A stretch of 32,000 nucleotides of DNA from Candidatus Zixiibacteriota bacterium (GCA_024231855.1 JAAEQD010000223.1:6042-38041), one strand, 5' to 3'. Shown: positions 2,432 to 32,000, counted from the stretch's first letter. The notes: generated by a model not told the origin, from the letters alone. Numbers and translations are program-made.

Positions 2432-2605
2432 ATGATCATAAAACGCCATAACAGGAAAGCTTATATTGGCCGAGATCCTATAATTAGCTGGTTCGCGGCT
2501 GATGCAAGAGGGAACTTGCTGGATTTCGATGTTAAATCGCGGAAGGAAATAACTCAATCATTAATCGAAATGGGTTTCAGACCGGAGAATATTAACAATC
2601 AATGA
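2432..2605 (+). CDS. small hypothetical protein (57 aa), translationally coupled to the serine recombinase
   Basis: ATG at 2432 with GGAGGAG at 2421-2427. Translation: MIIKRHNRKAYIGRDPIISWFAADARGNLLDFDVKSRKEITQSLIEMGFRPENINNQ. Its TGA (2603-2605) overlaps the recombinase ATG (2602-2604) as ATGA. It is below the ORF-track size cutoff. Confidence 0.45.
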   Translation: MIIKRHNRKAYIGRDPIISWFAADARGNLLDFDVKSRKEITQSLIEMGFRPENINNQ

Positions 2606-4530
2606 AATCTGCTGTGAAGACATCAATCGGTTTTAAACCGGCGGTTGGCTATCTGCGAAGATCCACCGACAGGCAGGAGCAGTCAATTGGCGATCAGAAG
2701 AAAGCGATTGAATTGTATGCCCTTACCGCCGGATACGAGTTGGTGGATTTCTATATTGATGACGCTATCAGTGGAGCCTCCTCGGAAGGCAGGGCTTCGT
2801 TTTTAAGGCTTATAGAAGATTCCAAACATAAAGACTGCCCATTTCAATATGTTCTGGTTTATGATGTTAAGCGGTTCGGCAGGGTCGATAACGATGAAGC
2901 CGGATTTTACAGATATCAGCTTCGCCGGAAAGGTATCGAGATAGTATATGTCTCCGAGGGCTTCAACGGTAATGATACCGATGATTTGCTTCGGCCTGTC
3001 AAACAGTGGCAAGCTCGACAAGAATTGAAGGACTTATCCAAGGTGGTTATCCGGGGATTGCTAACCAGAAGTGAGGGCGGCTGGTGGATGGGTGGTGTTC
3101 CTCCATATGGTTATGATCTCGCTTATTACAACAGCTCCGGAGATTTTATCTGCATCGTCAGATTCATGGAGGATGGTTCGCGGAATATTTATGACGCCGA
3201 GGGCAGCCTTCAAAGGGCCATACCGAAGGGTGAGAGTTTAGCATTGTCCAGAAAGGATCGCTGTCGATTAGTATCGAGCTCACCAGATCGGGTTGAAGTT
3301 ATAAAGAATATTTTTGACTTGTATTTAATAGAAGGTTTAGGCTATAAAGGAATCTCCCATCGACTCAACAGAAACAATATCCCCTCGCCTCGATGTAAAA
3401 CAAAAGGTAACGGCAAGCTAAGCCAATGGGCCAGCACGACGATTATGGCCATGCTGAAGAATCCGGCTTACACCGGAGATATGACGTGGAATAAAAAAAG
3501 CTACGCCAAGTTTCACCGGATCTCGGATAAGCGAGCTCTGGCCATGAAAAACCTGCCCGGTAATGAAGTATACCATAACAGCGAAGAGGACTGGATCGTT
3601 CACAAGGATGCTCATCCTGAATTAATTGCGCGGGACAGATATAACCGAGTCCAGGCGAAGATTAGGGCAACCGCTAAACATGGTTACGCCAACTCCTACC
3701 GATGCGGCAACGGGGCTAAATCACCATACTTGCTGGTAGGTTTGATTAAATGTATGAACTGCGGTCACAACTGGACCGGTCATAAAGCCATCAAAGGCAG
3801 AAAAAGATTAGATGGTTCAAACGCTGCATATTATTCCTATACTTGTAACGGCTATATAAGCAAAGGTAATTCTGTTTGTAATTTGAATGCTATCCCCAAA
3901 GATGCAATTGAAGTCTGGGTGATGGAAGTCATCGGCCAGATGTTAATAGAATACTTCGATTCTGATAATCTAAAAATATTACGCCGAATGGTCGAGCAGG
4001 AGATAAATGCTCTTATACCAGATATTGGAGCTGAACTCGATCAAATCGAACATCGCTTGGCTGAAATTACCAAAGCAATCACCAACCTCATCGATAATAT
4101 TAGCGATGTCAACCGTGAATTTGTCGATAAGCGGATTACCGAGCTGAAGCGGGAGATGATTGAATTGGAAAAGCGAAAAGCACAGTGTGAATCGGCAGGC
4201 GAAAAGAGATTGGAAACCGAGCGGATTATTGATGAAGCGATGGCTATGGCCGGGGATTTCAAACAGGTACTTGCCGAGGGATCGGTTGAAGAGAAGCGAT
4301 TATTTATCCGGGCTTTTTTAACAGGCATCAATTTAGATCCGCGGACCGGGGAGGGGGAAGCGCGATTTATACTGCTTCCGGGTCTGAATAAACTGTGGCA
4401 GCCTCAAAATCTGCCGGAATTGTATGAAAATCCTGCCAAACAGGCACAAAAAAATCCCGAAATCCGGGAAATGTCTTCACGGTTGGTAGTAGCGGCGCAG
4501 GGACTTGAACCCCGGACACGTGGATTATGA
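2602..4530 (+). CDS. large serine recombinase (resolvase/invertase N-domain + recombinase domain + zinc ribbon + coiled coil)
   Basis: 642 aa. The N-terminus VGYLRRSTDRQEQSIGDQKKAI...YVLVYDVKRFGR is the serine-recombinase catalytic domain. A Cys cluster (CMNCGHNW...YTCNGY...CN) is followed by a long coiled-coil-like region. The last 13 codons (VVAAQGLEPRTRGL*) are encoded by the antisense of the tRNA-Met 3' fragment. Confidence 0.9.
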   Translation: MKSAVKTSIGFKPAVGYLRRSTDRQEQSIGDQKKAIELYALTAGYELVDFYIDDAISGASSEGRASFLRLIEDSKHKDCPFQYVLVYDVKRFGRVDNDEAGFYRYQLRRKGIEIVYVSEGFNGNDTDDLLRPVKQWQARQELKDLSKVVIRGLLTRSEGGWWMGGVPPYGYDLAYYNSSGDFICIVRFMEDGSRNIYDAEGSLQRAIPKGESLALSRKDRCRLVSSSPDRVEVIKNIFDLYLIEGLGYKGISHRLNRNNIPSPRCKTKGNGKLSQWASTTIMAMLKNPAYTGDMTWNKKSYAKFHRISDKRALAMKNLPGNEVYHNSEEDWIVHKDAHPELIARDRYNRVQAKIRATAKHGYANSYRCGNGAKSPYLLVGLIKCMNCGHNWTGHKAIKGRKRLDGSNAAYYSYTCNGYISKGNSVCNLNAIPKDAIEVWVMEVIGQMLIEYFDSDNLKILRRMVEQEINALIPDIGAELDQIEHRLAEITKAITNLIDNISDVNREFVDKRITELKREMIELEKRKAQCESAGEKRLETERIIDEAMAMAGDFKQVLAEGSVEEKRLFIRAFLTGINLDPRTGEGEARFILLPGLNKLWQPQNLPELYENPAKQAQKNPEIREMSSRLVVAAQGLEPRTRGL

Positions 4531-9223: not shown

Positions 9224-9392
9224 ATCAAAGCCTTAATTTATTCGGCAGTTTGCGTTTGTCAAGAATTTCTTTTATTGTATCGGCATTAATCTTGACTTAT
9301 TTCATTAATATGTTATCATATAATAAGGTGTATAACTCGTTATGCCCCAATTAAAAATCGCATATTTTCAGGACCGAGCCCAGGAGGTTGCT

Positions 9393-10847
9393 ATGAATAA
9401 GGATAATAAGGCAAAGATTAACCGTACCGGTTTATCTAGGCGTAAGTTTTTGGGCCTGGCCGCGGCCGGATCGGCATTGTCCATGGCGAATCCATCGGCC
9501 CTTCTGGCCCGCAGCGCTCCGGCACCAATAAATCCGGTTCTGACCGATTATGTCGGGCGTTTATGCTATAATGAAAACCCCCTTGGGCCGTCACCGATGG
9601 CCATTCAGGCCATGTCCGATGATCTCGATATGAGCCATCGCTACCCCGACTGGTTCGCCGAGTCTCTGAAGGGCGATTTGGCCGATATTCATGATGTTTC
9701 TGATAACAATGTGATTGCCGGCTGTGGCGCCACCGAGATTCTTCGGCTGTGTGCCTTCGCTTTCGCCGAATCAAACGGCAATGTGGTCGCGCCCAATCCA
9801 TCCTATAGCCAATTCCCGGCCGATGCCGGTTTCCTTGGCTCTGATGTGTATTATTCAAGCCTCAATGATGACCACCGGATTGATCTCAATGATATGGCCG
9901 ATCGGGTTGATAACGACACGACCGCGGTTTGTATAACCAACCCTAATAATCCGACCGCTACTGTTTTAGCCGCCGATGATATCGAAGCGTTTGTCGATGA
10001 CCTTCCGCAGGGCGTAGTGACGATTATCGATGAGGCGTATCATGATTTCGTGGATGACCCGAATTACGAATCGGCTATCGATCTGGTCAGAAGAGGCAAA
10101 AATGTCGTTGTAATCCGAACGTTCTCAAAAGCCTATGGACTGGCGGGCGCGCGAATCGGTTACGGTATCGGCAGGCAAAGTCGGATAAATGATATGCGCG
10201 CCTGGCAAATCTTCTCGACTGTCTCCCGCCCGTCTCTCAATGCCTCCCGGGCGGCGCTAGATGATATTGACCACATCAACGACACGGTAACACTGAATAA
10301 TCAGGCTAAGCAGTATTGTTTCGGCTATTTTGATCTTTGGGGGCTAAGTTATATACCATCGCAAACCAACTTCTTCATGGTAGCCACCGAAATGGATAAT
10401 TCGGACCTTGCCGCCGCTTTATCATCCAGGGACTTCTATGTCAGGTATGGCTGGGGGATGGATCATCATATAAGGGTTTCCACCGGTACGATGGAGGAGA
10501 TGGAGGGATTTATCGATGCCATGTATGATATCCTGAACCAGGTGCATGCCGGCGGCTATACTATACCGCTTGTGACCGCTCTCGATGGCAATTACCCAAA
10601 TCCATTTAACAGCACAACCCGAATATCGTATTCGATAGCCAAATCCGGCCAGGTGAAAATTCAGATTTTCAATATCCGCGGCCAGCTGGTGAAAACCGTT
10701 GTCGATAGCTATCTGCTAGCCGGCAAACACGCTTTCGAATGGAGCGGCATCAATCAGCAGGGCGCGCCGGTGGCCTCGGGATCATATTTTTACCGGATGA
10801 CCGCAGGCGATTTCGCGCAGACCCGGCGGATGATTTTGGTGAAGTAG
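9393..10847 (+). CDS. HisC-family PLP aminotransferase with twin-arginine signal peptide and T9SS-type C-terminal sorting domain
   Basis: The preferred start is ATG 9393 (AGGAGG at 9381-9386) rather than the track start 9342. N-terminus: MNKDNKAKINRTGLSRRKFLGLAAAGSALSMANPSALLA (Tat motif SRRxFLG). Core: YNENPLGPSP...TNPNNPT...RTFSKAYGLAGARIGYG. The C-terminal ~85 aa, YPNPFNSTTRISYSI...VKIQIFNIRGQLVKTV...GSYFYRMTAGDFAQTRRMILVK, match the T9SS type-A CTD pattern. Confidence 0.85.
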   Translation: MNKDNKAKINRTGLSRRKFLGLAAAGSALSMANPSALLARSAPAPINPVLTDYVGRLCYNENPLGPSPMAIQAMSDDLDMSHRYPDWFAESLKGDLADIHDVSDNNVIAGCGATEILRLCAFAFAESNGNVVAPNPSYSQFPADAGFLGSDVYYSSLNDDHRIDLNDMADRVDNDTTAVCITNPNNPTATVLAADDIEAFVDDLPQGVVTIIDEAYHDFVDDPNYESAIDLVRRGKNVVVIRTFSKAYGLAGARIGYGIGRQSRINDMRAWQIFSTVSRPSLNASRAALDDIDHINDTVTLNNQAKQYCFGYFDLWGLSYIPSQTNFFMVATEMDNSDLAAALSSRDFYVRYGWGMDHHIRVSTGTMEEMEGFIDAMYDILNQVHAGGYTIPLVTALDGNYPNPFNSTTRISYSIAKSGQVKIQIFNIRGQLVKTVVDSYLLAGKHAFEWSGINQQGAPVASGSYFYRMTAGDFAQTRRMILVK

Positions 10848-19457: not shown

Positions 19458-19700
19458 ATGATGGCCAGAAAATTATCGAAGAACGAAGAAAGCCTCGGAT
19501 TTGGAAAGCTTAATTATGTTCTCATGGCTGTCGGTCTGGGCATGATTGTCCTGGGCTATATCCTTCTGGCGGTTGGCGATATCACGGGCGCGCCGATATT
19601 ATTAGTGATTGGTTATTGCGCGGTATTGCCGACGGCGATTCTAATATCGCAGCGATCGAAACAGGGTTCAGCTGGTACCGATCCCTCTATCGAAAAATAG
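19458..19700 (+). CDS. small two-helix membrane protein, function unknown
   Basis: 80 aa with a GGGGAAGG motif upstream. It has two hydrophobic stretches (LNYVLMAVGLGMIVLGYILLAVG and APILLVIGYCAVLPTAILI). Confidence 0.6.
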   Translation: MMARKLSKNEESLGFGKLNYVLMAVGLGMIVLGYILLAVGDITGAPILLVIGYCAVLPTAILISQRSKQGSAGTDPSIEK

Positions 19701-19743
19701 CGTACTAGTCGCTGAGTTCTTTAAAATAGAAAATAATCGCAAC

Positions 19744-19818
19744 GGGGTTGTAGTTCAGTTTGGTTAGAACGCCTGCCTGTCACGCAGGAGGCCGCGAGTT
19801 CGAGTCTCGTCAACCCCG
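19744..19818 (+). tRNA. tRNA-Asp (anticodon GTC)
   Basis: GGGGTTG TA GTTC AGTTTGGTTA GAAC G CCTGC CTGTCAC GCAGG AGGCC GCGAG TTCGAGT CTCGT CAACCCC G. All four stems pair perfectly and no CCA is encoded. Confidence 0.95.
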
Positions 19819-21252
19819 CTTTAAGATACGACCGGACCCTTTGGCAAGAATGTCAAAGGGTTTTCTGTATGTGGGATAAAGAGTTCCGCGATAGAATGTG
19901 CAGTTCGATAGTATAGTATTCAGTAATTTCCGTTGTTCTTCCCGAGATTCATGTAAAAACATATCGTAAGCGGAGTTAGCGAGTTCTAAAATGGTTGCCC
20001 CTGTTTTGTAGTAATTTGAATTCGCCAATTCGTAGGATTTGATTTTATGCTGAATATCTATCAATTCATGTTCCCATTCGCTGGATTTTCTTTCCCAGAG
20101 CGATTCAGAGATTTTACAGCTTAATTTGTCCTCATATGCTCGATCCAAAAGACGTTGAATATGATTATGTCGCTTTTGTAGAGAAGTTATCGATGAGGTA
20201 TGGAATTCTTTCTTGTCTTTTTGGCTTTCGAGTAATGCTTGTTTGATATCTTCAACAGCATGTTCACCTATTCTTATCCGTTTTACAGCATCAGCAAGCA
20301 GATGGCCTAATCTTTCTTCTCGAATATAGACATTATCACATTTACCTCGAAACTGAGTGCAGTGATAATAAATATATTTACCTTTCTTAATCTCGGGAGT
20401 CATCGCGCAGCCGCATTTTCCACAAGAAATGAATCCGGCAAACGCGAATTCCCGTTTTGTTTCTTTTGGGTGGTTTGATTGGGCGAAAACCCGCTGAACA
20501 TCATCGTAAAGCGTTTTGCTTATTATAGTGGAGTGTTTACCGAGGTATCGTTTCCCCTTCCAAATAAAATCACCATAATAAATTGGATTATTAAGAATTC
20601 GATGGATTCCGGCTTTATTAATTGTATTTGAATTACGTGAAAATAAACCAGATTCTTTTGCTTTTATAGACAGTTGCTCCAGCGAATATTGTCCAGATGC
20701 ATACCATTCAAATAGACGTTTTATAAAGGGACCTTTAATCGGATCGGGTTCAATCAGCTTAGATTCCTTATTGCTCGTATATCCTACTGGTGGTCGAGCA
20801 GGCCATTCTCCCTGTTCTGCCTTTTCTGTTAAGCCTTTTTTGACCTCTTCGGATAAATTGTCGATGTAATTCTTTGCCATTAATACTTTGATACCATGCA
20901 TAAATTTTTCCGAAGATTTTGAGTTTTTGGATAATACTGAGCCTTCTTTTACAAAATGTATTTCAATATCATATTCATCGAGAATTACCCAATCTTTAAT
21001 ATTTCGATATAATCTGTCTGTCTTTTCAACCAAAATAGTCTTACAGGTTGGATTGGATTTCAGGAATGAAAGCATATTGCCAAAACCTATTCTACCGGTC
21101 TTTTTCGCGGTCTCAACGTCGATATATTCAGCGACTACCCGGAATCGCTTTTCAAGAGCATACTTTCTAAGCAATTTCAATTGGGATGGTATTGAATAGC
21201 CCTCTTTCTCTTGCTCCTTTGAAGAAACCCTGGCATATATGACACAATTCAT
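19810..21252 (-). CDS. large serine recombinase
   Basis: 480 aa. The N-terminus MNCVIYARVSSKEQEKEGYSIPSQ...ILVEKTDRLYRN is the catalytic domain. A recombinase domain and zinc ribbon (CGKCGCAM...YYHC...C) follow, then a coiled coil. The stop and last two codons (19810-19818) overlap the tRNA-Asp acceptor 3' strand. Confidence 0.9.
   Translation of the reverse strand: MNCVIYARVSSKEQEKEGYSIPSQLKLLRKYALEKRFRVVAEYIDVETAKKTGRIGFGNMLSFLKSNPTCKTILVEKTDRLYRNIKDWVILDEYDIEIHFVKEGSVLSKNSKSSEKFMHGIKVLMAKNYIDNLSEEVKKGLTEKAEQGEWPARPPVGYTSNKESKLIEPDPIKGPFIKRLFEWYASGQYSLEQLSIKAKESGLFSRNSNTINKAGIHRILNNPIYYGDFIWKGKRYLGKHSTIISKTLYDDVQRVFAQSNHPKETKREFAFAGFISCGKCGCAMTPEIKKGKYIYYHCTQFRGKCDNVYIREERLGHLLADAVKRIRIGEHAVEDIKQALLESQKDKKEFHTSSITSLQKRHNHIQRLLDRAYEDKLSCKISESLWERKSSEWEHELIDIQHKIKSYELANSNYYKTGATILELANSAYDMFLHESREEQRKLLNTILSNCTFYRGTLYPTYRKPFDILAKGSGRILKRG
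19837..19865 (+). terminator. rho-independent terminator downstream of tRNA-Asp (embedded in the 3' coding end of the antisense LSR gene)
   Basis: ccctttggca agaa tgtcaaaggg forms a 10-bp stem with one G-U pair, followed by tttt at 19861-19864. Confidence 0.5.
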
Positions 21253-21446
21253 TTTTCCAATCCTTTTTTGCCAATAAGCTTCCTGATATGATAAGACTGA
21301 ATTTTATTTGGGTATTGATGCCGATTTAACCATCGATTGATAGTTACAAATGACACACCCAATAAATCAGCTAACTCTTGCTGTGTGATCCGATTATCCA
21401 AGCGATATTCTTCCAGTTCTTCAATGAGTTTCTGTTCTTTTTGCAT
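21249..21446 (-). CDS. small helix-turn-helix DNA-binding protein (candidate regulator or directionality factor)
   Basis: 65 aa. ITQQELADLLGVSFVTINRWLN is a classic HTH. Its TGA overlaps the LSR ATG (ATGA on the minus strand at 21252-21249). Confidence 0.75.
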   Translation of the reverse strand: MQKEQKLIEELEEYRLDNRITQQELADLLGVSFVTINRWLNRHQYPNKIQSYHIRKLIGKKGLEK

Positions 21447-21478
21447 ATATCGTAATATATCGTTATATAATTAACAAG

Positions 21479-22579
21479 TCAAGCTTTATTTTTTGCTTCT
21501 GTCAGAATTTTTATAGCTTTGTTGATTTCGTCTTTTTGATTTTGGTTCTCTTCAGAAGGATTAAAACTCATGGTTGATATTACCTCTTTTACTTGATATT
21601 CATCAAGATTTCCATAAGTCAACAATGTGGTTCCAACGAATTGATGGCCAAAATTTTGACTGATTGCTTTCATCTGCTCGGCATTTCTGCAATTCTTCAT
21701 AGCTATGTGTATTGCTGCATGTCTAAATGAATGGGGCTGATAATAATCGAGACCTGCGGTAGATGAACGCTTTTTTAGTATTTCGCGAATTCTTCCGGCG
21801 CTTTTCCAGAAATGAGGTTCTACCTTTAATGAAGTAAATGTCAATCCGCCTTTGATTTGCTCAATCTTATTTCGAGGGAAAAAGGGGCTGGTTGGTGCAT
21901 ATAGTTTTTCTTTGAGTAGATAATAATGCCATTTGGTAACATATGATACTAATTGATCATCAAATTGTAGTAACGTAGAATGGATTAACTTGCCAAACTT
22001 GGTTTCTACCCCTTTTTGTGGGTCTTGGATGATTTCGAGAGTTTCTTGATCAAAACAACCCAGGGGAAGTGTGCTAATTGCTTTATCTCTCATTCCGCTT
22101 AGCAATAAAAATGCTATTAAGGCTCGGTCCCGGCGGTCGATTTCAGTTTCAATTTTTATTGAATCAGTTAACCGCTTAACATATTCTAATGAAGGAAACT
22201 TGACTGCTTTTGGCGTAAGAGCTTCTCGAACTTTTTTCTTTTCCAAAGTCAAATACGATACCGTGTCCAGATTGATTTTTGATTTATAGCCTGGTTGGCC
22301 AGACAACCATGAAAAAAAACTCTTAAGATGGCGTAGATGGTGATAAATAGTTGTTGTTGATAGGCTTTTTCCCTTTCTTTTTCTCTCACAAAGCCACTTT
22401 TTAAAATTAATGGCTTTTGTTTGGGAAAATGCCTCATAGTCATTATGTCGAGCAAAATCTTCATACAACCAAATGGCTTTTTCAACGCTACAAATTGTCG
22501 ATTCCGAAAATCCCGAGGCCTCTCTTAATCGCTTGATATATCGTCTCTTCAATTTCTCATTATTTATATTTATTTTCAT
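21479..22579 (-). CDS. tyrosine-type site-specific recombinase/integrase
   Basis: 366 aa with an N-terminal SAM-like core-binding region. Catalytic-domain motifs: LLLSGMRDKAI (Arg), HSFRHAAIH (HxxR), and GHQFVGTTLLTYGN (Tyr). Confidence 0.85.
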   Translation of the reverse strand: MKININNEKLKRRYIKRLREASGFSESTICSVEKAIWLYEDFARHNDYEAFSQTKAINFKKWLCERKRKGKSLSTTTIYHHLRHLKSFFSWLSGQPGYKSKINLDTVSYLTLEKKKVREALTPKAVKFPSLEYVKRLTDSIKIETEIDRRDRALIAFLLLSGMRDKAISTLPLGCFDQETLEIIQDPQKGVETKFGKLIHSTLLQFDDQLVSYVTKWHYYLLKEKLYAPTSPFFPRNKIEQIKGGLTFTSLKVEPHFWKSAGRIREILKKRSSTAGLDYYQPHSFRHAAIHIAMKNCRNAEQMKAISQNFGHQFVGTTLLTYGNLDEYQVKEVISTMSFNPSEENQNQKDEINKAIKILTEAKNKA

Positions 22580-22615
22580 GATTATTGACCTCCACGATGT
22601 CAGTGTTTACGATAG

Positions 22616-23113
22616 GTTCTAAGTTACCTATTAGAGATCGCTGTCAGGGCGTCATTGACAGGTCATTTGGTCCTATCAACGCTTCACACCAATGATGCTG
22701 CCTCGGCTATCACCAGGCTAATCAATATGAATATCGAACCCTATCTGATAGCTTCATCCCTATCGATGGTTGTAGCTCAACGCCTGGTCAGATTGCTCTG
22801 TCTGGACTGCAAAACAGAATATGAACCATCTGCTCTAGAGCTGGAGAAGCTGGGATTAAAGGCAGATACTAATCATCGCTTTTATGCTCCTAACGGTTGT
22901 GATAAGTGTTTGGGTACAGGTTATGTAAGCAGGTCTGGGGTATACGAAATATTGCCTATTAATGATGATATATCATCGCTTATATTGAATAACGCACCTT
23001 TGAGTGATTACAGAAAACTAATTCATACAATGAGTTACGGATTGCTCAAGGTTAATGCTATCGAGCTTTTAAAGTCAGGTCAAACTTCCTTTATTGAAAT
23101 CTCGACTTTATAA
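22616..23113 (+). pseudogene. 3' remnant of a GspE/PilB-family secretion or type IV pilus ATPase
   Basis: The frame opens just after a TAG at 22613-22615. Homology begins around [22 protein letters not shown] (His box). The C-terminal tetracysteine motif CLDCK...CDKCLGTGY is present. The Walker A/B two-thirds of the gene are missing, and only a TTG (22655) is available as a start. Confidence 0.75.
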
Positions 23114-23166
23114 CTAATTATCTATAATACAATTATAAAATAGTTAAGAAATTTCAAAAAAACAAT

Positions 23167-23196
23167 TTGACAGATAAGTATATCCTTTTGTATCAT
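23167..23196 (+). promoter_or_regulatory. putative sigma-70-type promoter of the giant gene
   Basis: TTGACA (23167-23172), 18 nt, TATCAT (23191-23196), about 127 nt upstream of GTG 23323. Consensus match only. Confidence 0.35.
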
Positions 23197-23322
23197 TTAA
23201 TCCAGTTAGGCAAATAGACCAATAAAAGTAATACGCCTAGTTCGTTGCTACGGTCGCTACAATAAGTTTATTAAAAGATTAATAACTAAATAGTTGTTTC
23301 ATTGGGGGGTGAGGAGGATGTT

Positions 23323-26300
23323 GTGCATAAATCTCAGTTTTTTGGCTCAATTGTATTAATAGCTATTCTCTTGGTTTTACTAACACCTTACACAGGTTTT
23401 TGTGTAGAGGCAGAATCGAGCTATCAAGGTCTGAATATTGGCGGTGAACAGGCTCAAAATCCTTTTCAGTCAGATGGAGTTTCCTCTGATGACGTGAATA
23501 CTTTTACCGGCAATGTTGAACTTGACATGCAATTAGTATCATTGCCCGGACCTAATGGTTTTAACTTAGAGCTTGGGATAGAATACTGCAGCGAAATAGA
23601 AGAAATGGTATATCAGAATAACGATAGGACTCAATCATCCTGGTTAGGTGTCGGCTGGAACCTGGAAATGCCGGCGATAGTAGCAGATTTGAATGGAACG
23701 GTTGATTATAATGATGATAAATATTTTTATAATTCTCCGGGTGAAGGAATGATTCCCTTAATCCCGATCGTAACAGATCCTGAACAAGATGAATATATGC
23801 TCGAGCGTTTCCAGCCCTGGAAAATTAAGCGGATATTTGGTCAGGAGCAGAATAATGTTCAGTATGTAATCAGTTGGGAAATAACCAGAGAAGATGGCTC
23901 GATGTTAATATTCGGCGATAATATCGATCCAAATATTCCAAATCCACTAGGATTTGATTTTGACGCAACCAGAATAGCCCTGGGTTTGGAAAACAGCATT
24001 TTAGCAATAAAAACCAATGTCGATGAGACTGTTATTTCGGAAATACGGCATGTTTCTTACCAATGGGATTTAAAAACTGTTAAGAGCGTTGATCATCAAA
24101 ATAGCATCACTATATGTTACGGACAACAAACCAAATTGGGATATAGCGAAGGTGCTTCAGTGAATGAATACTTTACAAGGTGCTCTCATCCGGACACTAT
24201 AATCGACGCGATTGGAAGATCAGTCGTTTTCTATACTGGTATCCGCCTGCCGGGAGAATACTATAACAAAATGCCACATTCAAATTTCGCCCGACATGAT
24301 TCGGTTTACCTCGACAGCTTGGTAATGTTTGGCTGCGACGGCGATTGGCTCGGAAAATATGATTTTAGTTACGCGTTATCTAATGTCTATGAAGAATATC
24401 CTTATGATTTAAAACGTTATTTAACCGGGATCTCATATTATGCTTATAATGATAGTACTGTTCCAACATTAAGGCTTGACTATTATCTTGATCAGGAGCA
24501 TGCCCCCGTTGCTGGATTGTTTAAGGGTAGTGATAATAACGGCCCTTCAACAGAAGATTATGAAATGCATGTTATGAATAATTTAATTGATTATGATATA
24601 TTTACTCAAGATTATTTATTGCCGAATGCCATAAAGAATAGTTTTGGTTTGGATCTTGGGATTGCTAAAACCGTTGATCGGATAAAAATCTATGATAACG
24701 CCGGTACTGGAACCGCCGGTACAGATCATGAAGTCACTATTCTATATGGAGGTAACAATAGTGATTGGACCGTCCTTGAAACCCTGGATCAAAGCTCTAT
24801 AGATCGAATAGATGACTGCTACTGGATGATCCCATTAACAACTCCCACATCAGCGCGCTTCTGGCGTGTTTATATCGACGGTCAATTAAAGGTTGATGAC
24901 TTACCCGTTTATTTTACGGAAATTAAAGCGTATGACGAGGATCCGGTTGAAGATCATCCTTATTTTGGCGCTTTAAGATCAATCAGGTATCCTGGCGGTT
25001 CAAAAGTAGAATATGGATATGCCAAAAAATCACTCGAATACGCTCCGATTGATACAAATGTAACCGTTTTATTGGAGGACTCGTCTGATCCGTTTATAAG
25101 AGAGCAGTCTTCGGAATACTTCATAGCGCAAAGACGCGTTAGTAATGCCCACCTGACAGTTCATTATTGGGATGGCTATTGGCGCCAGATTACCTTCAAC
25201 AACGTTGAACATTATGCATGTGCCGGAAATTCTTTTGTATTTACTTCAAATGATCCGCAAGATTTTACCGTACACATATATGAAATCAGAAACGGCAAAT
25301 TAGAGAATACTAACAACTTCGAATGCGGAGTCCCTAATTCTCCGCGAAGAAGTGGTACGGAAATTTGGGCCGGACAGGATTGCTACTATCTAAGGGTCAC
25401 CCCGGAAAACACCGCAGTATATCCAATAGCTGCACATTTTCTGGTTAAACATAATGGTCAATGGTTGAAAGAAACTAATAATAGCTTCCACCTGGGCCTT
25501 TGTGTACCTTGTGACAATACTTCGCATCGTGATAGCGTTTTCGTAGGTAAAGATTACTTCGTAATTGAAAATAATCTGAAGGATTGGGAAGCTAATCCAC
25601 CACATGGAGAATGGCAATGCGAGCGGAGAATCTACGCCTGGAAATGGAATGGCGTTCCTGGTTCAGGCGGTACAGTACAACATCTGTATACCGGAAACAA
25701 TATGGATATGAATTTCTATTTTATTCCTTCGGATGATTATTTTGTTATTTCCATGGGCTCGGATGATTACTATGCATGTGAGCATTCTGGAGATCCAAAT
25801 AGTGGACATTGGAGGCAAGATTGGACTCAAACAATATACTTGTATTTATGGGATACTGTTAGCGAACGCTGGAATGAACATGAAGTTGGCTACGTTGAAG
25901 ATTTTATGAGAGAGGGAAATTGGCATCAGTTCCACCCAGGATCCGGTTGGATTTGGCTAACAGCTCAGCGAGACTTTTTTGCCTATGCCGTAGATAACAG
26001 GCCGTGGAGGGATGACCACCAGGACGGATGTTTCTGCAGAATAGTAAAAATAAATCGCAATGAGGATGGCAGCAATGGGTCTGGTCCTACTGATAGAACG
26101 ATAGCTATCCAAGAATTGGACTGGGGCAACAAAATCAATGTAACATCCGGTCCTGATTATGTGGCTATAATTGATAATCCTAGAGGCGAACTTAAAATTT
26201 GGGAATGGAATGGAAACAGCTGGAGTTCGACGGAAATTCCATTAGCTGTCGACCCCCATTTAGATGATTATGTTTATATGTGGCCATCCGGCGATCATTT

Positions 26301-32000: not shown

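Follow-up and report, generated by a model that had tools for sequence, protein, structure and literature searches.

A very large Rhs/YD polymorphic toxin gene of candidate division Zixibacteria and its possible link to a secretin/pseudopilin machine

Toxins enclosed in Rhs/YD cocoons are known to be delivered by TcA injectors, by a type VI secretion system (T6SS), or by surface display, as in Gram-positives and in teneurin-like proteins (TLPs). The survey of polymorphic toxins by Zhang et al. (2012) describes a "TcdB/TcaC" export class which combines a signal peptide, SpvB, a beta-propeller and RHS repeats and occurs in many phyla including Bacteroidetes; "T2SS", for type II secretion system, serves there as an export label beside other routes (PMC3482391). 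Described herein is a giant gene of this kind, which occupies positions 23323..32000 (+ strand) of a 32,000-nucleotide stretch of DNA from Candidatus Zixiibacteriota bacterium (GCA_024231855.1 JAAEQD010000223.1:6042-38041), hereafter the window, and continues past its end. An earlier description of the same DNA, made without database searches and referred to below as the sequence-only reading, had taken the product for a secreted, fused TcB/TcC-like Rhs cocoon protein lacking any recognisable delivery partner. Its architecture was already catalogued in 2012, and the protein, MCP4582425.1, is a very large, decorated member of that class. The gene itself is thus an ordinary, if very large, polymorphic toxin, and the new leads are a conserved link to a secretin operon and a relationship to the mosquito protein SGS1. 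Taken together, we consider it fairly probable that MCP4582425.1 is a secreted, self-closing Rhs/YD cocoon RNase toxin served by a dedicated type-IV-filament machine, and that the window carries a relocated copy.

Several structurally described proteins bear on this gene. SGS1 runs in the order shell start, distorted propeller, carbohydrate-binding module (CBM), carbohydrate-recognition domain of lectin type (lectin-CRD), disulfide-stapled wedge, Rhs core, protease site and encapsulated C-terminus; its propeller 2 has nine blades, and the molecule measures 210 x 115 x 86 Å (PMC9935623). Its gene is eukaryotic and thought to be endosymbiont-acquired. The cocoons of the ABC (Tc) toxins, such as TcdB2-TccC3 (6h6g) and YenB-YenC2 (4igl), are closed at one end by a TcB propeller of 5-6 blades. 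Bacterial TLPs (BiTLP, 9ifo/9pt5) have a downstream immunity gene, surface-anchoring N-terminal modules, an FN-plug and NHL propeller, and another phyletic range (PMC13018210). On the side of the toxins, the C-terminal domain of YxiD (YxiD-CTD) has the barnase-EndoU-colicin E5/D-RelE (BECR) fold, belongs to PF15542, and acts as a tRNase that depends on metal and is blocked by its cognate immunity protein (PMC12700104). In the survey by Zhang et al., Ntox50 is listed as a predicted RNase toxin of BECR fold (PMC3482391).

The frame of the giant gene is free of stops from 23290 to the window end (32000), with the next in-frame stop upstream at 23287-23289, and counts 2,892 codons from GTG 23323; since the GC content is ~40%, a stop-free run of this length cannot have arisen by chance. 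A whole-protein search returned an identical protein in NCBI, MCP4582425.1 (P0001; GY839_12510; 3,047 aa, "hypothetical protein"), from a metagenome-assembled genome (MAG) of candidate division Zixibacteria, in which the contig that encodes it measures 44,004 bp. The window covers codons 1-2892, and the final 155 of the 3,047 residues lie outside it and are taken from this protein record; exact 50-mers of the window end matched no contig in the genome and metagenome collections. The sequence-only reading had proposed a single frame of more than 2,890 codons and had blamed its absence from the list of open reading frames (ORFs) on the omission of ORFs without a stop. Both statements are correct: the frame simply leaves the window, which is the sole cause of the omission. 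Between the candidate starts, TTG 23302 and GTG 23323, the annotation has the same GTG that had been proposed, 5 nt downstream of a ribosome-binding site, GGAGG (23313..23317). The promoter-like element that had been reported, TTGACA-18-TATCAT (23167..23196), is present as a sigma-70-like match at 11/12 positions, but such sites are not in excess in the region (5, against 3.5 +/- 1.9 in shuffles), and the sigma-70 rules used for scoring may not apply in the Zixibacteria phylum. All the peptide motifs quoted in the earlier description were found in the translation.

The C-like half of the protein opens with DUF6443 (aa 1872-1981, 28936..29265), which scores 48-54 bits in Pfam against a cutoff of 27.8. 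It is followed by a YD-repeat shell (aa 1982-2540, 29266..30942) with ten YD..G motifs, weak RHS_repeat and YD_repeat_2x matches and homology to annotated Rhs proteins (P0004-P0014). The shell leads to an Rhs-associated core with aspartyl autoprotease motifs (aa 2715-2803, 31465..31731), which matches TIGR03696 at 44.1 bits (cutoff 32.5) and carries the series FGARYYDP...VDP...NSPVLKYDPDG. This core aligns with the autoproteolytic region of SGS1, SGS4, TccC3, TccC2, RHS2, YenC2 and BiTLP. Its nearest counterparts in sequence are SGS1 (E 3.5e-17) and SGS4, with TccC behind them, and BiTLP (9pt5/9ifo) is matched at E 1e-6. Before DUF6443, the YD shell is re-entered at 26770..27702, where the family-conserved motif AKYHKSV (aa 1195) and an RHS repeat (aa 1412-1437) are found. 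In the protein as a whole, RHS_repeat reaches 27.5 bits (cutoff 22) and TIGR01643 20.6 (cutoff 15.8).

After YDPDG, 244 residues remain, which comprise a linker of ~145 residues and an Ntox50 domain of ~100. The window holds the first 89 of them, all linker (31732..32000), and Ntox50 (aa 2949-3041) lies past the window end. On the full-length protein, the Pfam match to Ntox50 scores 64.5 bits, and the domain aligns over its full extent with MafB2 (8hhj_B) and YxiD-CTD (9v8i_B); QGKHIKGH, VDFGYKIG and GIIHY...HIVPARP are conserved, and the motifs of the toxin alignment can also be given as GKHIxGH and IHY...HIVP. The C-terminal region that had been called unrecognised is therefore a linker followed by an Ntox50 RNase toxin, most of it past the window end. 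A paralogue in the same MAG, P0002 (MCP4580519.1), is 59% identical through aa 2808 and then continues into an unrelated C-terminus, a swap that constitutes a polymorphic-toxin signature.

Two smaller observations concern the same end of the gene. The linker (aa 2804-2948, 31732-32000 and beyond), which has no family match, contains the tandem-like NNVAFQIGP / NNVAFEIGP and a Gly-rich amphipathic stretch (GAYGSVFGSVGYDILEAGAF), and it could aid passage of the RNase across a target membrane. Small unannotated ORFs lie downstream of the giants at several related loci (L001, 250 aa; L002, 294 aa; L003, 119 aa; L009, 217 aa). The one at L001 (18732-19484) overlaps the giant stop by 17 nt, has no family match and is a candidate immunity gene.

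The N-terminus resembles a signal peptide (aa 1-29, 23323..23409; MHK + FFGSIVLIAILLVLLT + PYTGFC, assigned by hydropathy). Kyte-Doolittle values above 1.6 over 19 aa are reached in a single stretch of the 3,047 residues, namely residues 1-30, where MHK precedes a hydrophobic segment, aa 6-24. A cleavable Sec signal, as had been suggested, agrees with this, and other membrane segments are ruled out. The first turn of the shell (aa ~55-400, 23485..24522) is SpvB/DUF6531-like, judged from sub-threshold Pfam matches (DUF6531, 20 bits, aa 56-116; SpvB, 16.8 bits against a cutoff of 22, aa 102-219), from the structural model and from Foldseek. It is followed by a Trp-rich beta-propeller of at least 7 blades (aa ~590-1035, 25090..26427), assigned from the model, blade signatures and Foldseek. 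Of the 56 Trp of the protein, 21 fall within aa 601-1000; seven to eight G.D[YF]FV blade signatures occur in the propeller sequence, and the region has no Pfam match of any kind.

The structural model was obtained with AlphaFold2 for residues 31-1230 only, from a multiple sequence alignment (MSA) of 41 sequences (predicted TM-score, pTM, 0.69; mean predicted local distance difference test, pLDDT, 63); an earlier model from an 8-sequence MSA (pLDDT 49.8) was discarded. The start of the shell (pLDDT 70-93) and the greater part of the propeller are modelled with confidence. The propeller comprises ~eight to nine regular four-strand units, two of them at low confidence, and its presence after the SpvB part is predicted with moderate confidence. 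In Foldseek searches of the PDB, the top match is mosquito SGS1 (8fjp; E 1.9e-21, query TM-score (TMq) 0.37, 1,324 aligned columns). Next comes every TcB or TcB-TcC structure (E 1e-13 to 1e-10, probability 1.00, TMq just 0.16-0.18). The isolated SpvB N-domain 6p0x is matched at E 8.7e-6 (target TM-score, TMt, 0.48), and further matches are T6SS Rhs shells and many beta-propellers. Teneurin-3 appears at a probability of only 0.21, and BiTLP is not among the best 50 matches. At the sequence level, neither the N-terminal family profile nor segment-wise searches of the shell and its modules against PDB sequences gave anything beyond chance matches such as hemagglutinin HA2; the profile itself matched nothing. 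TcdB_toxin_midN/midC were not matched in MCP4582425.1 even at E up to 1, nor was FG-GAP, and none of 25 scanned family members carries TcdB_toxin_mid or FG-GAP domains, which are present in the TcB-like relatives P0013 and P0015.

Seen against these results, the domain order given in the sequence-only reading holds in part. The YD repeats and the canonical Rhs core ending in DPDG are real, and so is the fused B-C order, given that stand-alone members of the family (~1,340-1,410 aa) end at the counterpart of residue ~1,660-1,675, before DUF6443. The SpvB/TcB-like N-terminus is recovered as a fold (Foldseek E 1e-13 to 1e-5) and not as a sequence family (16.8 against 22 bits). Likewise, the Trp-rich region said to recall the TcB propeller does model as a propeller, but with at least 7 blades instead of the 5-6 of TcB and without TcdB_toxin_mid. 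Among the profiles that had been named for a check by hidden Markov models (HMMs), RHS_repeat and the Rhs core are above threshold, SpvB is below it and TcdB_toxin_mid is absent.

The shell is decorated with inserted modules. A Cys-flanked type I dockerin (aa 2541-2636, 30943..31230) is the sole insert above its threshold: Dockerin_1 scores 26.6-30.3 bits at aa 2573-2627 (cutoff 22.9), the segment also matches dockerin sequences of the PDB, and it contains two DxNxDGxxxxxD Ca-binding loops. MCP4582425.1, P0002 and P0003 all retain the dockerin together with the Cys on either side of it. A second insertion (aa 414-545, 24562..24957), recognised from a BLAST gap and a sub-threshold Pfam match, is tentatively discoidin (F5/8 type C)-like. 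F5_F8_type_C scores 18.6 bits at aa ~440-520 (cutoff 28.2), a CBM32 of the PDB is matched at E 0.81, and the model is not confident across the segment. Residues ~414-545 are missing from P0002 and P0003, and the segment is therefore copy-specific. Two further modules have no HMM match in Pfam, and their PDB searches stayed at chance level: module 1 (aa ~1470-1615, 27730..28167), conserved in P0002 and P0003, and module 2 (aa ~1695-1865, 28405..28917), whose insertion point is shared with relatives. At that point, just before DUF6443, relatives hold Pfam LamG-type modules (Laminin_G_3, 3keto-disac_hyd). Moreover, module 1 takes the position of the SGS1 CBM and module 2 that of the SGS1 lectin-CRD (PMC9935623). 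Because SGS1 appears collinear and relatives hold LamG-type modules there, both are likely to be beta-sandwich inserts. The three "binding-type modules" proposed earlier are accordingly weakly supported, one being sub-threshold and copy-specific and the other two without matches, and the dockerin stands above threshold instead.

The family to which MCP4582425.1 belongs is large. With a profile built from the first ~900 conserved positions of eight homologues, 1,754 cluster representatives out of 1.84 billion were recovered at E<=1e-3; at E<=1e-30 the number is 646. Lengths cluster at ~1,350-1,450 aa and at 2,000-2,900 aa. Short members (1,340-1,410 aa) share a conserved C-terminal tail that aligns through residue 1657 of P0001 and thereby places the B/C junction at aa ~1660-1675 (28300..28345); one of them, P0058, ends with its own stop codon. 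In a scan of 25 members, DUF6443 was found in the long (fused) ones exclusively, and SpvB in 3. The existence of short members and the restriction of DUF6443 to long ones indicate that the family occurs both split, as B-like and C-like genes, and fused. MCP4582425.1 is, judged by its sequence, a fusion of TcB-like and TcC-like halves. A distant homologue, P0003, is 30% identical to MCP4582425.1 across 80% of the length.

In comparison with the TcdB/TcaC class, MCP4582425.1 shares the signal peptide, what may be an SpvB-type start, the propeller, the RHS repeats, the polymorphic toxin and a C-terminus-swapped paralogue. It differs in its sub-threshold SpvB, in a propeller of at least 7 blades that is not integrin/FG-GAP-like, in the dockerin and modules of the shell, and in the secretin/pseudopilin operon link set out below, which is not described by Zhang et al. 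SGS1 provides the best N-terminal fold match and the best core sequence match, is similar in length at ~3,000 aa and appears collinear in domain order, whereas SGS1 alone features one more 7-bladed propeller at its N-terminus, a wedge at the place of the dockerin of MCP4582425.1, and, instead of an RNase, helical membrane-type cargo followed by Tox-SGS. Sequence similarity between the two is detectable in the Rhs core only, and propeller 1, the wedge and Tox-SGS are absent from MCP4582425.1. The TcB-TcC cocoons are similar in what may be an SpvB-type start on both sides, the propeller end, the autoprotease, the enclosed toxin and the occurrence of split and fused forms. What sets the present protein apart from them is the lack of TcdB_toxin_mid, the lack of TcA at the loci examined, the signal peptide, the other propeller, a toxin of bacterial-targeting type and the secretin context. 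YxiD, an LXG toxin of B. subtilis (9v8i), and MafB2 of Neisseria (8hhj) have the same C-terminal ~100 residues and His motifs, and delivery differs: LXG with the type VII secretion system (T7SS) and MafB N-terminal domains there, a YD cocoon here. With bacterial TLPs such as BiTLP, finally, a Sec-exported YD shell and a cleaved small polymorphic toxin are shared, whereas plug and propeller types and phyletic range differ.

The evidence for a delivery machine begins immediately upstream of the giant gene, where a T2SSE (GspE/PilB-type) ATPase gene survives as its last 159 codons, native stop included, at 22634..23113 (+), identified by Pfam and by alignment with related locus L001. Within this remnant, the ORF 22655-23113 (152 codons) covers T2SSE profile positions 234-368 of 370, the C-terminal third. 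Over residues 328-486, the complete ATPase (486 aa) of L001 shares 67% identity with the remnant, and both have the same final residue. Homology begins 8 codons 5' of the TTG; a stop codon and unrelated sequence lie at once upstream, which makes a sharp breakpoint, and the tyrosine integrase gene starts 52 nt away. At L001, the contig of P0003, a tight co-oriented operon lies directly upstream of the giant gene and encodes a secretin (STN, N0, N1), PilN-like and PilO-like proteins, an unknown ORF, a 449-aa PilX_N-type pseudopilin, three N-methyl pseudopilins and the 486-aa T2SSE. At L002 (P0005), the order is secretin, PilN-like, small ORFs, PilX-like, two pseudopilins, T2SSF, two small ORFs and giant gene. 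At L010 (P0016), a prepilin peptidase and a pseudopilin are located <3 kb upstream, together with two ORFs homologous to a 258-aa ORF of L002. L002 and L010 are relatives with a signal peptide and enough upstream sequence; four further contigs did not extend far enough for a judgement. The operons are orthologous, with identities of 44% between the secretins, 25% between the PilX-like proteins, 41% for the major pseudopilin and 35% for the accessory ORF, and the giants that accompany them are just 20-35% identical to MCP4582425.1.

Were the window copy a detached duplicate, an intact operon would be expected beside the paralogue. A query with the L001 secretin indeed returned a 76%-identical secretin, GY839_02840 (MCP4580528.1), in the same MAG, nine proteins from the paralogue MCP4580519.1 on the same 59,146-bp contig, and the secretin-to-giant spacing at L001 is also nine. 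The operon at the paralogue locus is known here from this secretin and the nine-gene spacing. Thus, where the earlier description saw a dead gspE as noise and no recognisable delivery partner, the remnant marks a conserved secretin/pseudopilin/ATPase operon link, and it is gene order alone that would point to export of the giant cocoon by that operon. The same description was right that no TcA-like or VgrG/PAAR partner is recognisable upstream: no TcA-like gene was found in the window or in ten related loci (within L001-L011), and no T6SS gene in the window or related loci. Cohesins are likewise absent from the window and from the operon proteins. A literature search for T2SS-linked Rhs/YD proteins gave nothing specific.

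Three side observations concern these operons. An ORF of ~250-265 aa without Pfam match lies directly upstream of the giant at L002 (7363-8139), L010 (2109-2891 and 3028-3774) and L011 (7555-8352). The L002 and L010 copies are homologous (35%, 29%) and in tandem in L010, the L011 ORF is alike in size and position only, and no such ORF is present in the window or L001. A chaperone, a pilotin or another accessory factor may be encoded here. At L001, a weak Phage_integrase-like ORF (37-897) stands before the secretin operon, and the operon and toxin unit may be mobile. The secretin type of the operon (STN + N0 + Secretin; P0165 etc.) has 161 relatives at E<=1e-20 in Zixibacteria, KSB1, Cloacimonetes, Bacteroidota and Rhodothermales, labelled PilQ, GspD or "secretin and TonB N-terminal domain-containing protein".

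From the domains, motifs, paralogue pattern, fold relationship and gene-order conservation observed, we infer the following steps for the cocoon toxin and its machine. The signal peptide, read from the sequence, would take the protein across the inner membrane by the Sec route. According to the model and to homology, the chain would then fold as a YD shell, closed at one end by the propeller of at least 7 blades and at the other by the Rhs core plug. The aspartyl protease motifs of the core predict cleavage after YDPDG (aa 2802), upon which the 244-residue cargo would stay inside. This cargo would consist of the linker and the Ntox50 RNase of BECR fold, with a tRNase-type activity predicted from its relative YxiD. 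On the exterior of the shell, the dockerin, the copy-specific discoidin-like segment and the two possible beta-sandwiches would presumably bind a surface anchor or target-cell glycans. Outer-membrane crossing or surface deployment would be performed by a T2SS/type IV pilus (T4P)-like machine, suggested by the conserved gene order only, whose parts would be the secretin, PilN/O-like proteins, the large PilX-type pseudopilin, small pseudopilins and GspE/GspF. The window copy would be a detached duplicate, placed at a tRNA-Asp together with two recombinase genes and reliant on the machine of the paralogue locus. Competing bacteria are the likely targets, and a cognate immunity gene would be expected just downstream of the window. 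As the gene is unbroken and shows diversification, namely an added insert and another toxin, the window copy is read as a functional relocated cassette rather than a pseudogene.

A wider proposition, possible but less likely than not, is that a dedicated type-IV-filament machine has been recruited for the export or deployment of ~300-kDa TcB/TcC-type cocoon toxins without TcA, T6SS or a type IX secretion system (T9SS) signal, and that the ~1,750-cluster family is the closest free-living relative of mosquito SGS. The machine in question would comprise an STN-domain secretin, PilN/O-like proteins, a ~450-residue PilX-type pseudopilin, small pseudopilins and GspE/F, in Zixibacteria and the related Fibrobacteres-Chlorobi-Bacteroidetes (FCB) group.

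Several considerations weigh against delivery of a cocoon by this machine. Every export step is drawn from gene order, and the operon link is absent at four more distant members, L003, where a signal peptide is present, L004 and L005, where it is missing, and L011, where a B-like gene stands alone. A toxin-unrelated pilus could be what the operon builds, and operon and toxin could simply share a mobile island, as the integrase-like ORF of L001 may indicate. The ATPase gene is broken at the window locus, and the copy there may be an orphan. Classical T2SS and T4P secretin channels are roughly 55-80 Å wide. A cocoon 86-115 Å in width, as in SGS1, exceeds them, which makes passage of the folded shell doubtful. 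The machine may therefore act unlike a classical T2SS, for example by bearing the cocoon at the tip of a pseudopilus; an indirect link is the other possibility. As for the protein itself, the structural model is moderately confident only (mean pLDDT 63), and encapsulation of the 27-kDa cargo and an outward dockerin are predictions that concern parts outside the modelled residues 31-1230. The SpvB, discoidin and jelly-roll assignments are sub-threshold or without match.

Among the alternatives, the one that survives best, unlikely as we judge it, is a surface contact toxin that would leave the cell by Sec and another outer-membrane route and be tethered through dockerin and cohesin, with the operon as an unrelated passenger of a mobile region. 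It would account for the above-threshold type I dockerin conserved in P0002 and P0003 and for a folded cocoon that looks too wide for a secretin. It is in keeping with the T9SS-type surface proteins that the organism uses and with the integrase-like ORF before the L001 operon. However, no cohesin is encoded in the window or among the operon proteins, and the giant protein has no T9SS C-terminal sorting domain, its C-terminus being the toxin. The same-strand order from secretin to ATPase and giant is, furthermore, kept between proteins with just 24-35% identity and at two loci of one genome, which would be hard to obtain via hitch-hiking alone.

The similarity to Tc toxins raises the question of whether MCP4582425.1 is the BC part of a classical ABC toxin, with a TcA encoded elsewhere in the genome that docks the propeller and injects probably eukaryotic cells. 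All solved TcB and TcB-TcC structures are matched at a probability of 1.00, the Rhs core is homologous to TccC and YenC, and split and fused forms exist in the family as they do in Tc toxins. Nonetheless, we regard this as quite improbable. TcdB_toxin_midN/midC and FG-GAP are missing from P0001 and from the 25 scanned members, whereas P0013 and P0015 have them; the blades of the propeller number at least 7 instead of 5-6; TM-scores to TcB stay low (0.16-0.18), and the fit to SGS1 is better. No TcA-like gene is present in the window or in the ten related loci, the protein has a Sec signal peptide, and MafB and LXG, in which the Ntox50 type is known, are interbacterial toxins. In its strict form, an ABC-toxin BC subunit, the candidate was rejected, as no TcdB-mid domains and no TcA gene at any locus examined were found.

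It is also very improbable that the window copy is a decaying orphan, that is, a duplicate which lost its secretion operon on moving to the tRNA-Asp island and is no longer deployed. The truncation of the ATPase at a sharp breakpoint beside two recombinase genes and a GC content below that of housekeeping genes would agree with such a history. Against it, none of the 3,047 codons is disrupted, conservation extends to signal peptide, protease motifs and toxin histidines, and the gene has its own ribosome-binding site and promoter-like site. The copy has acquired a module of its own and another toxin, changes in line with diversification and not with decay, and a machine is present elsewhere in the same genome, with the secretin nine genes from the paralogue.

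Lastly, a bacterial TLP, that is, a Sec-exported YD-shell toxin, would share the logic of signal peptide, plug and propeller, YD shell, DPxG cleavage and small polymorphic toxin, as well as the core match to BiTLP (9pt5/9ifo, E 1e-6), but can hardly be credited and was rejected, with no FN-plug/NHL-type fold match (BiTLP falling outside the best 50 Foldseek matches and teneurin at a probability of 0.21), no TEN_YD-shell in the precomputed Pfam list or the Pfam scans, no TLP-specific N-terminal domain recognised, a core nearer to SGS1 and TccC than to BiTLP, and Zixibacteria and FCB phyla lying outside the six phyla reported with TLPs (PMC13018210). A T6SS Rhs effector was rejected as well: the N-terminus is a signal peptide plus shell, without PAAR, VgrG or prePAAR-TM, and the window and related loci contain no T6SS gene.

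For the diderm toxins with Sec signal, SpvB, propeller and RHS repeats, outer-membrane crossing has been a mere label since 2012, and the operon link to the cocoon toxins described here makes the question testable. It also poses a physical puzzle, given that the cocoon appears wider than known secretin channels. If true, the link would represent a new delivery route for Rhs cocoons, either a secretin for unusually large folded cargo or a cocoon-carrying pilus. In addition, the family offers bacterial comparators for mosquito SGS1, a pathogen-transmission factor. To our knowledge, the bacterial ancestry of SGS1 is known solely via short Wolbachia-type homologues.

The surroundings of the gene agree with what had been described: a tRNA-Asp, a serine recombinase, a tyrosine integrase and the T2SSE fragment, on an AT-rich island. 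The tRNA-Asp (GTC), found with ARAGORN at 19744..19819 (+), is followed by the lower-GC island, where GC falls past position 20000 to below that of housekeeping genes. A large serine recombinase gene (19810..21252, - strand; Pfam Resolvase, Recombinase, Zn_ribbon_recom) overlaps the tRNA-Asp by 10 nt with its 3' end. A tyrosine integrase gene (21479..22579, - strand) matches Phage_int_SAM_1, with Phage_integrase just under its cutoff. No tRNA-Asp-derived direct repeat bounding the recombinase module was detected within 19600-23400. Elsewhere in the window, a second large serine recombinase gene (2602-4530, +) sits in a higher-GC patch that adjoins the low-GC ORFs 101-898 and 988-2034, which have no family matches. 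The gene at 9342-10847 (+) encodes a protein of class I/II aminotransferase fold, in which Alliinase_C is matched weakly, and which carries a C-terminal FlgD_ig/Por_Secre_tail T9SS sorting domain, which suggests an unusual case of a pyridoxal phosphate (PLP)-fold enzyme sent to the cell surface.

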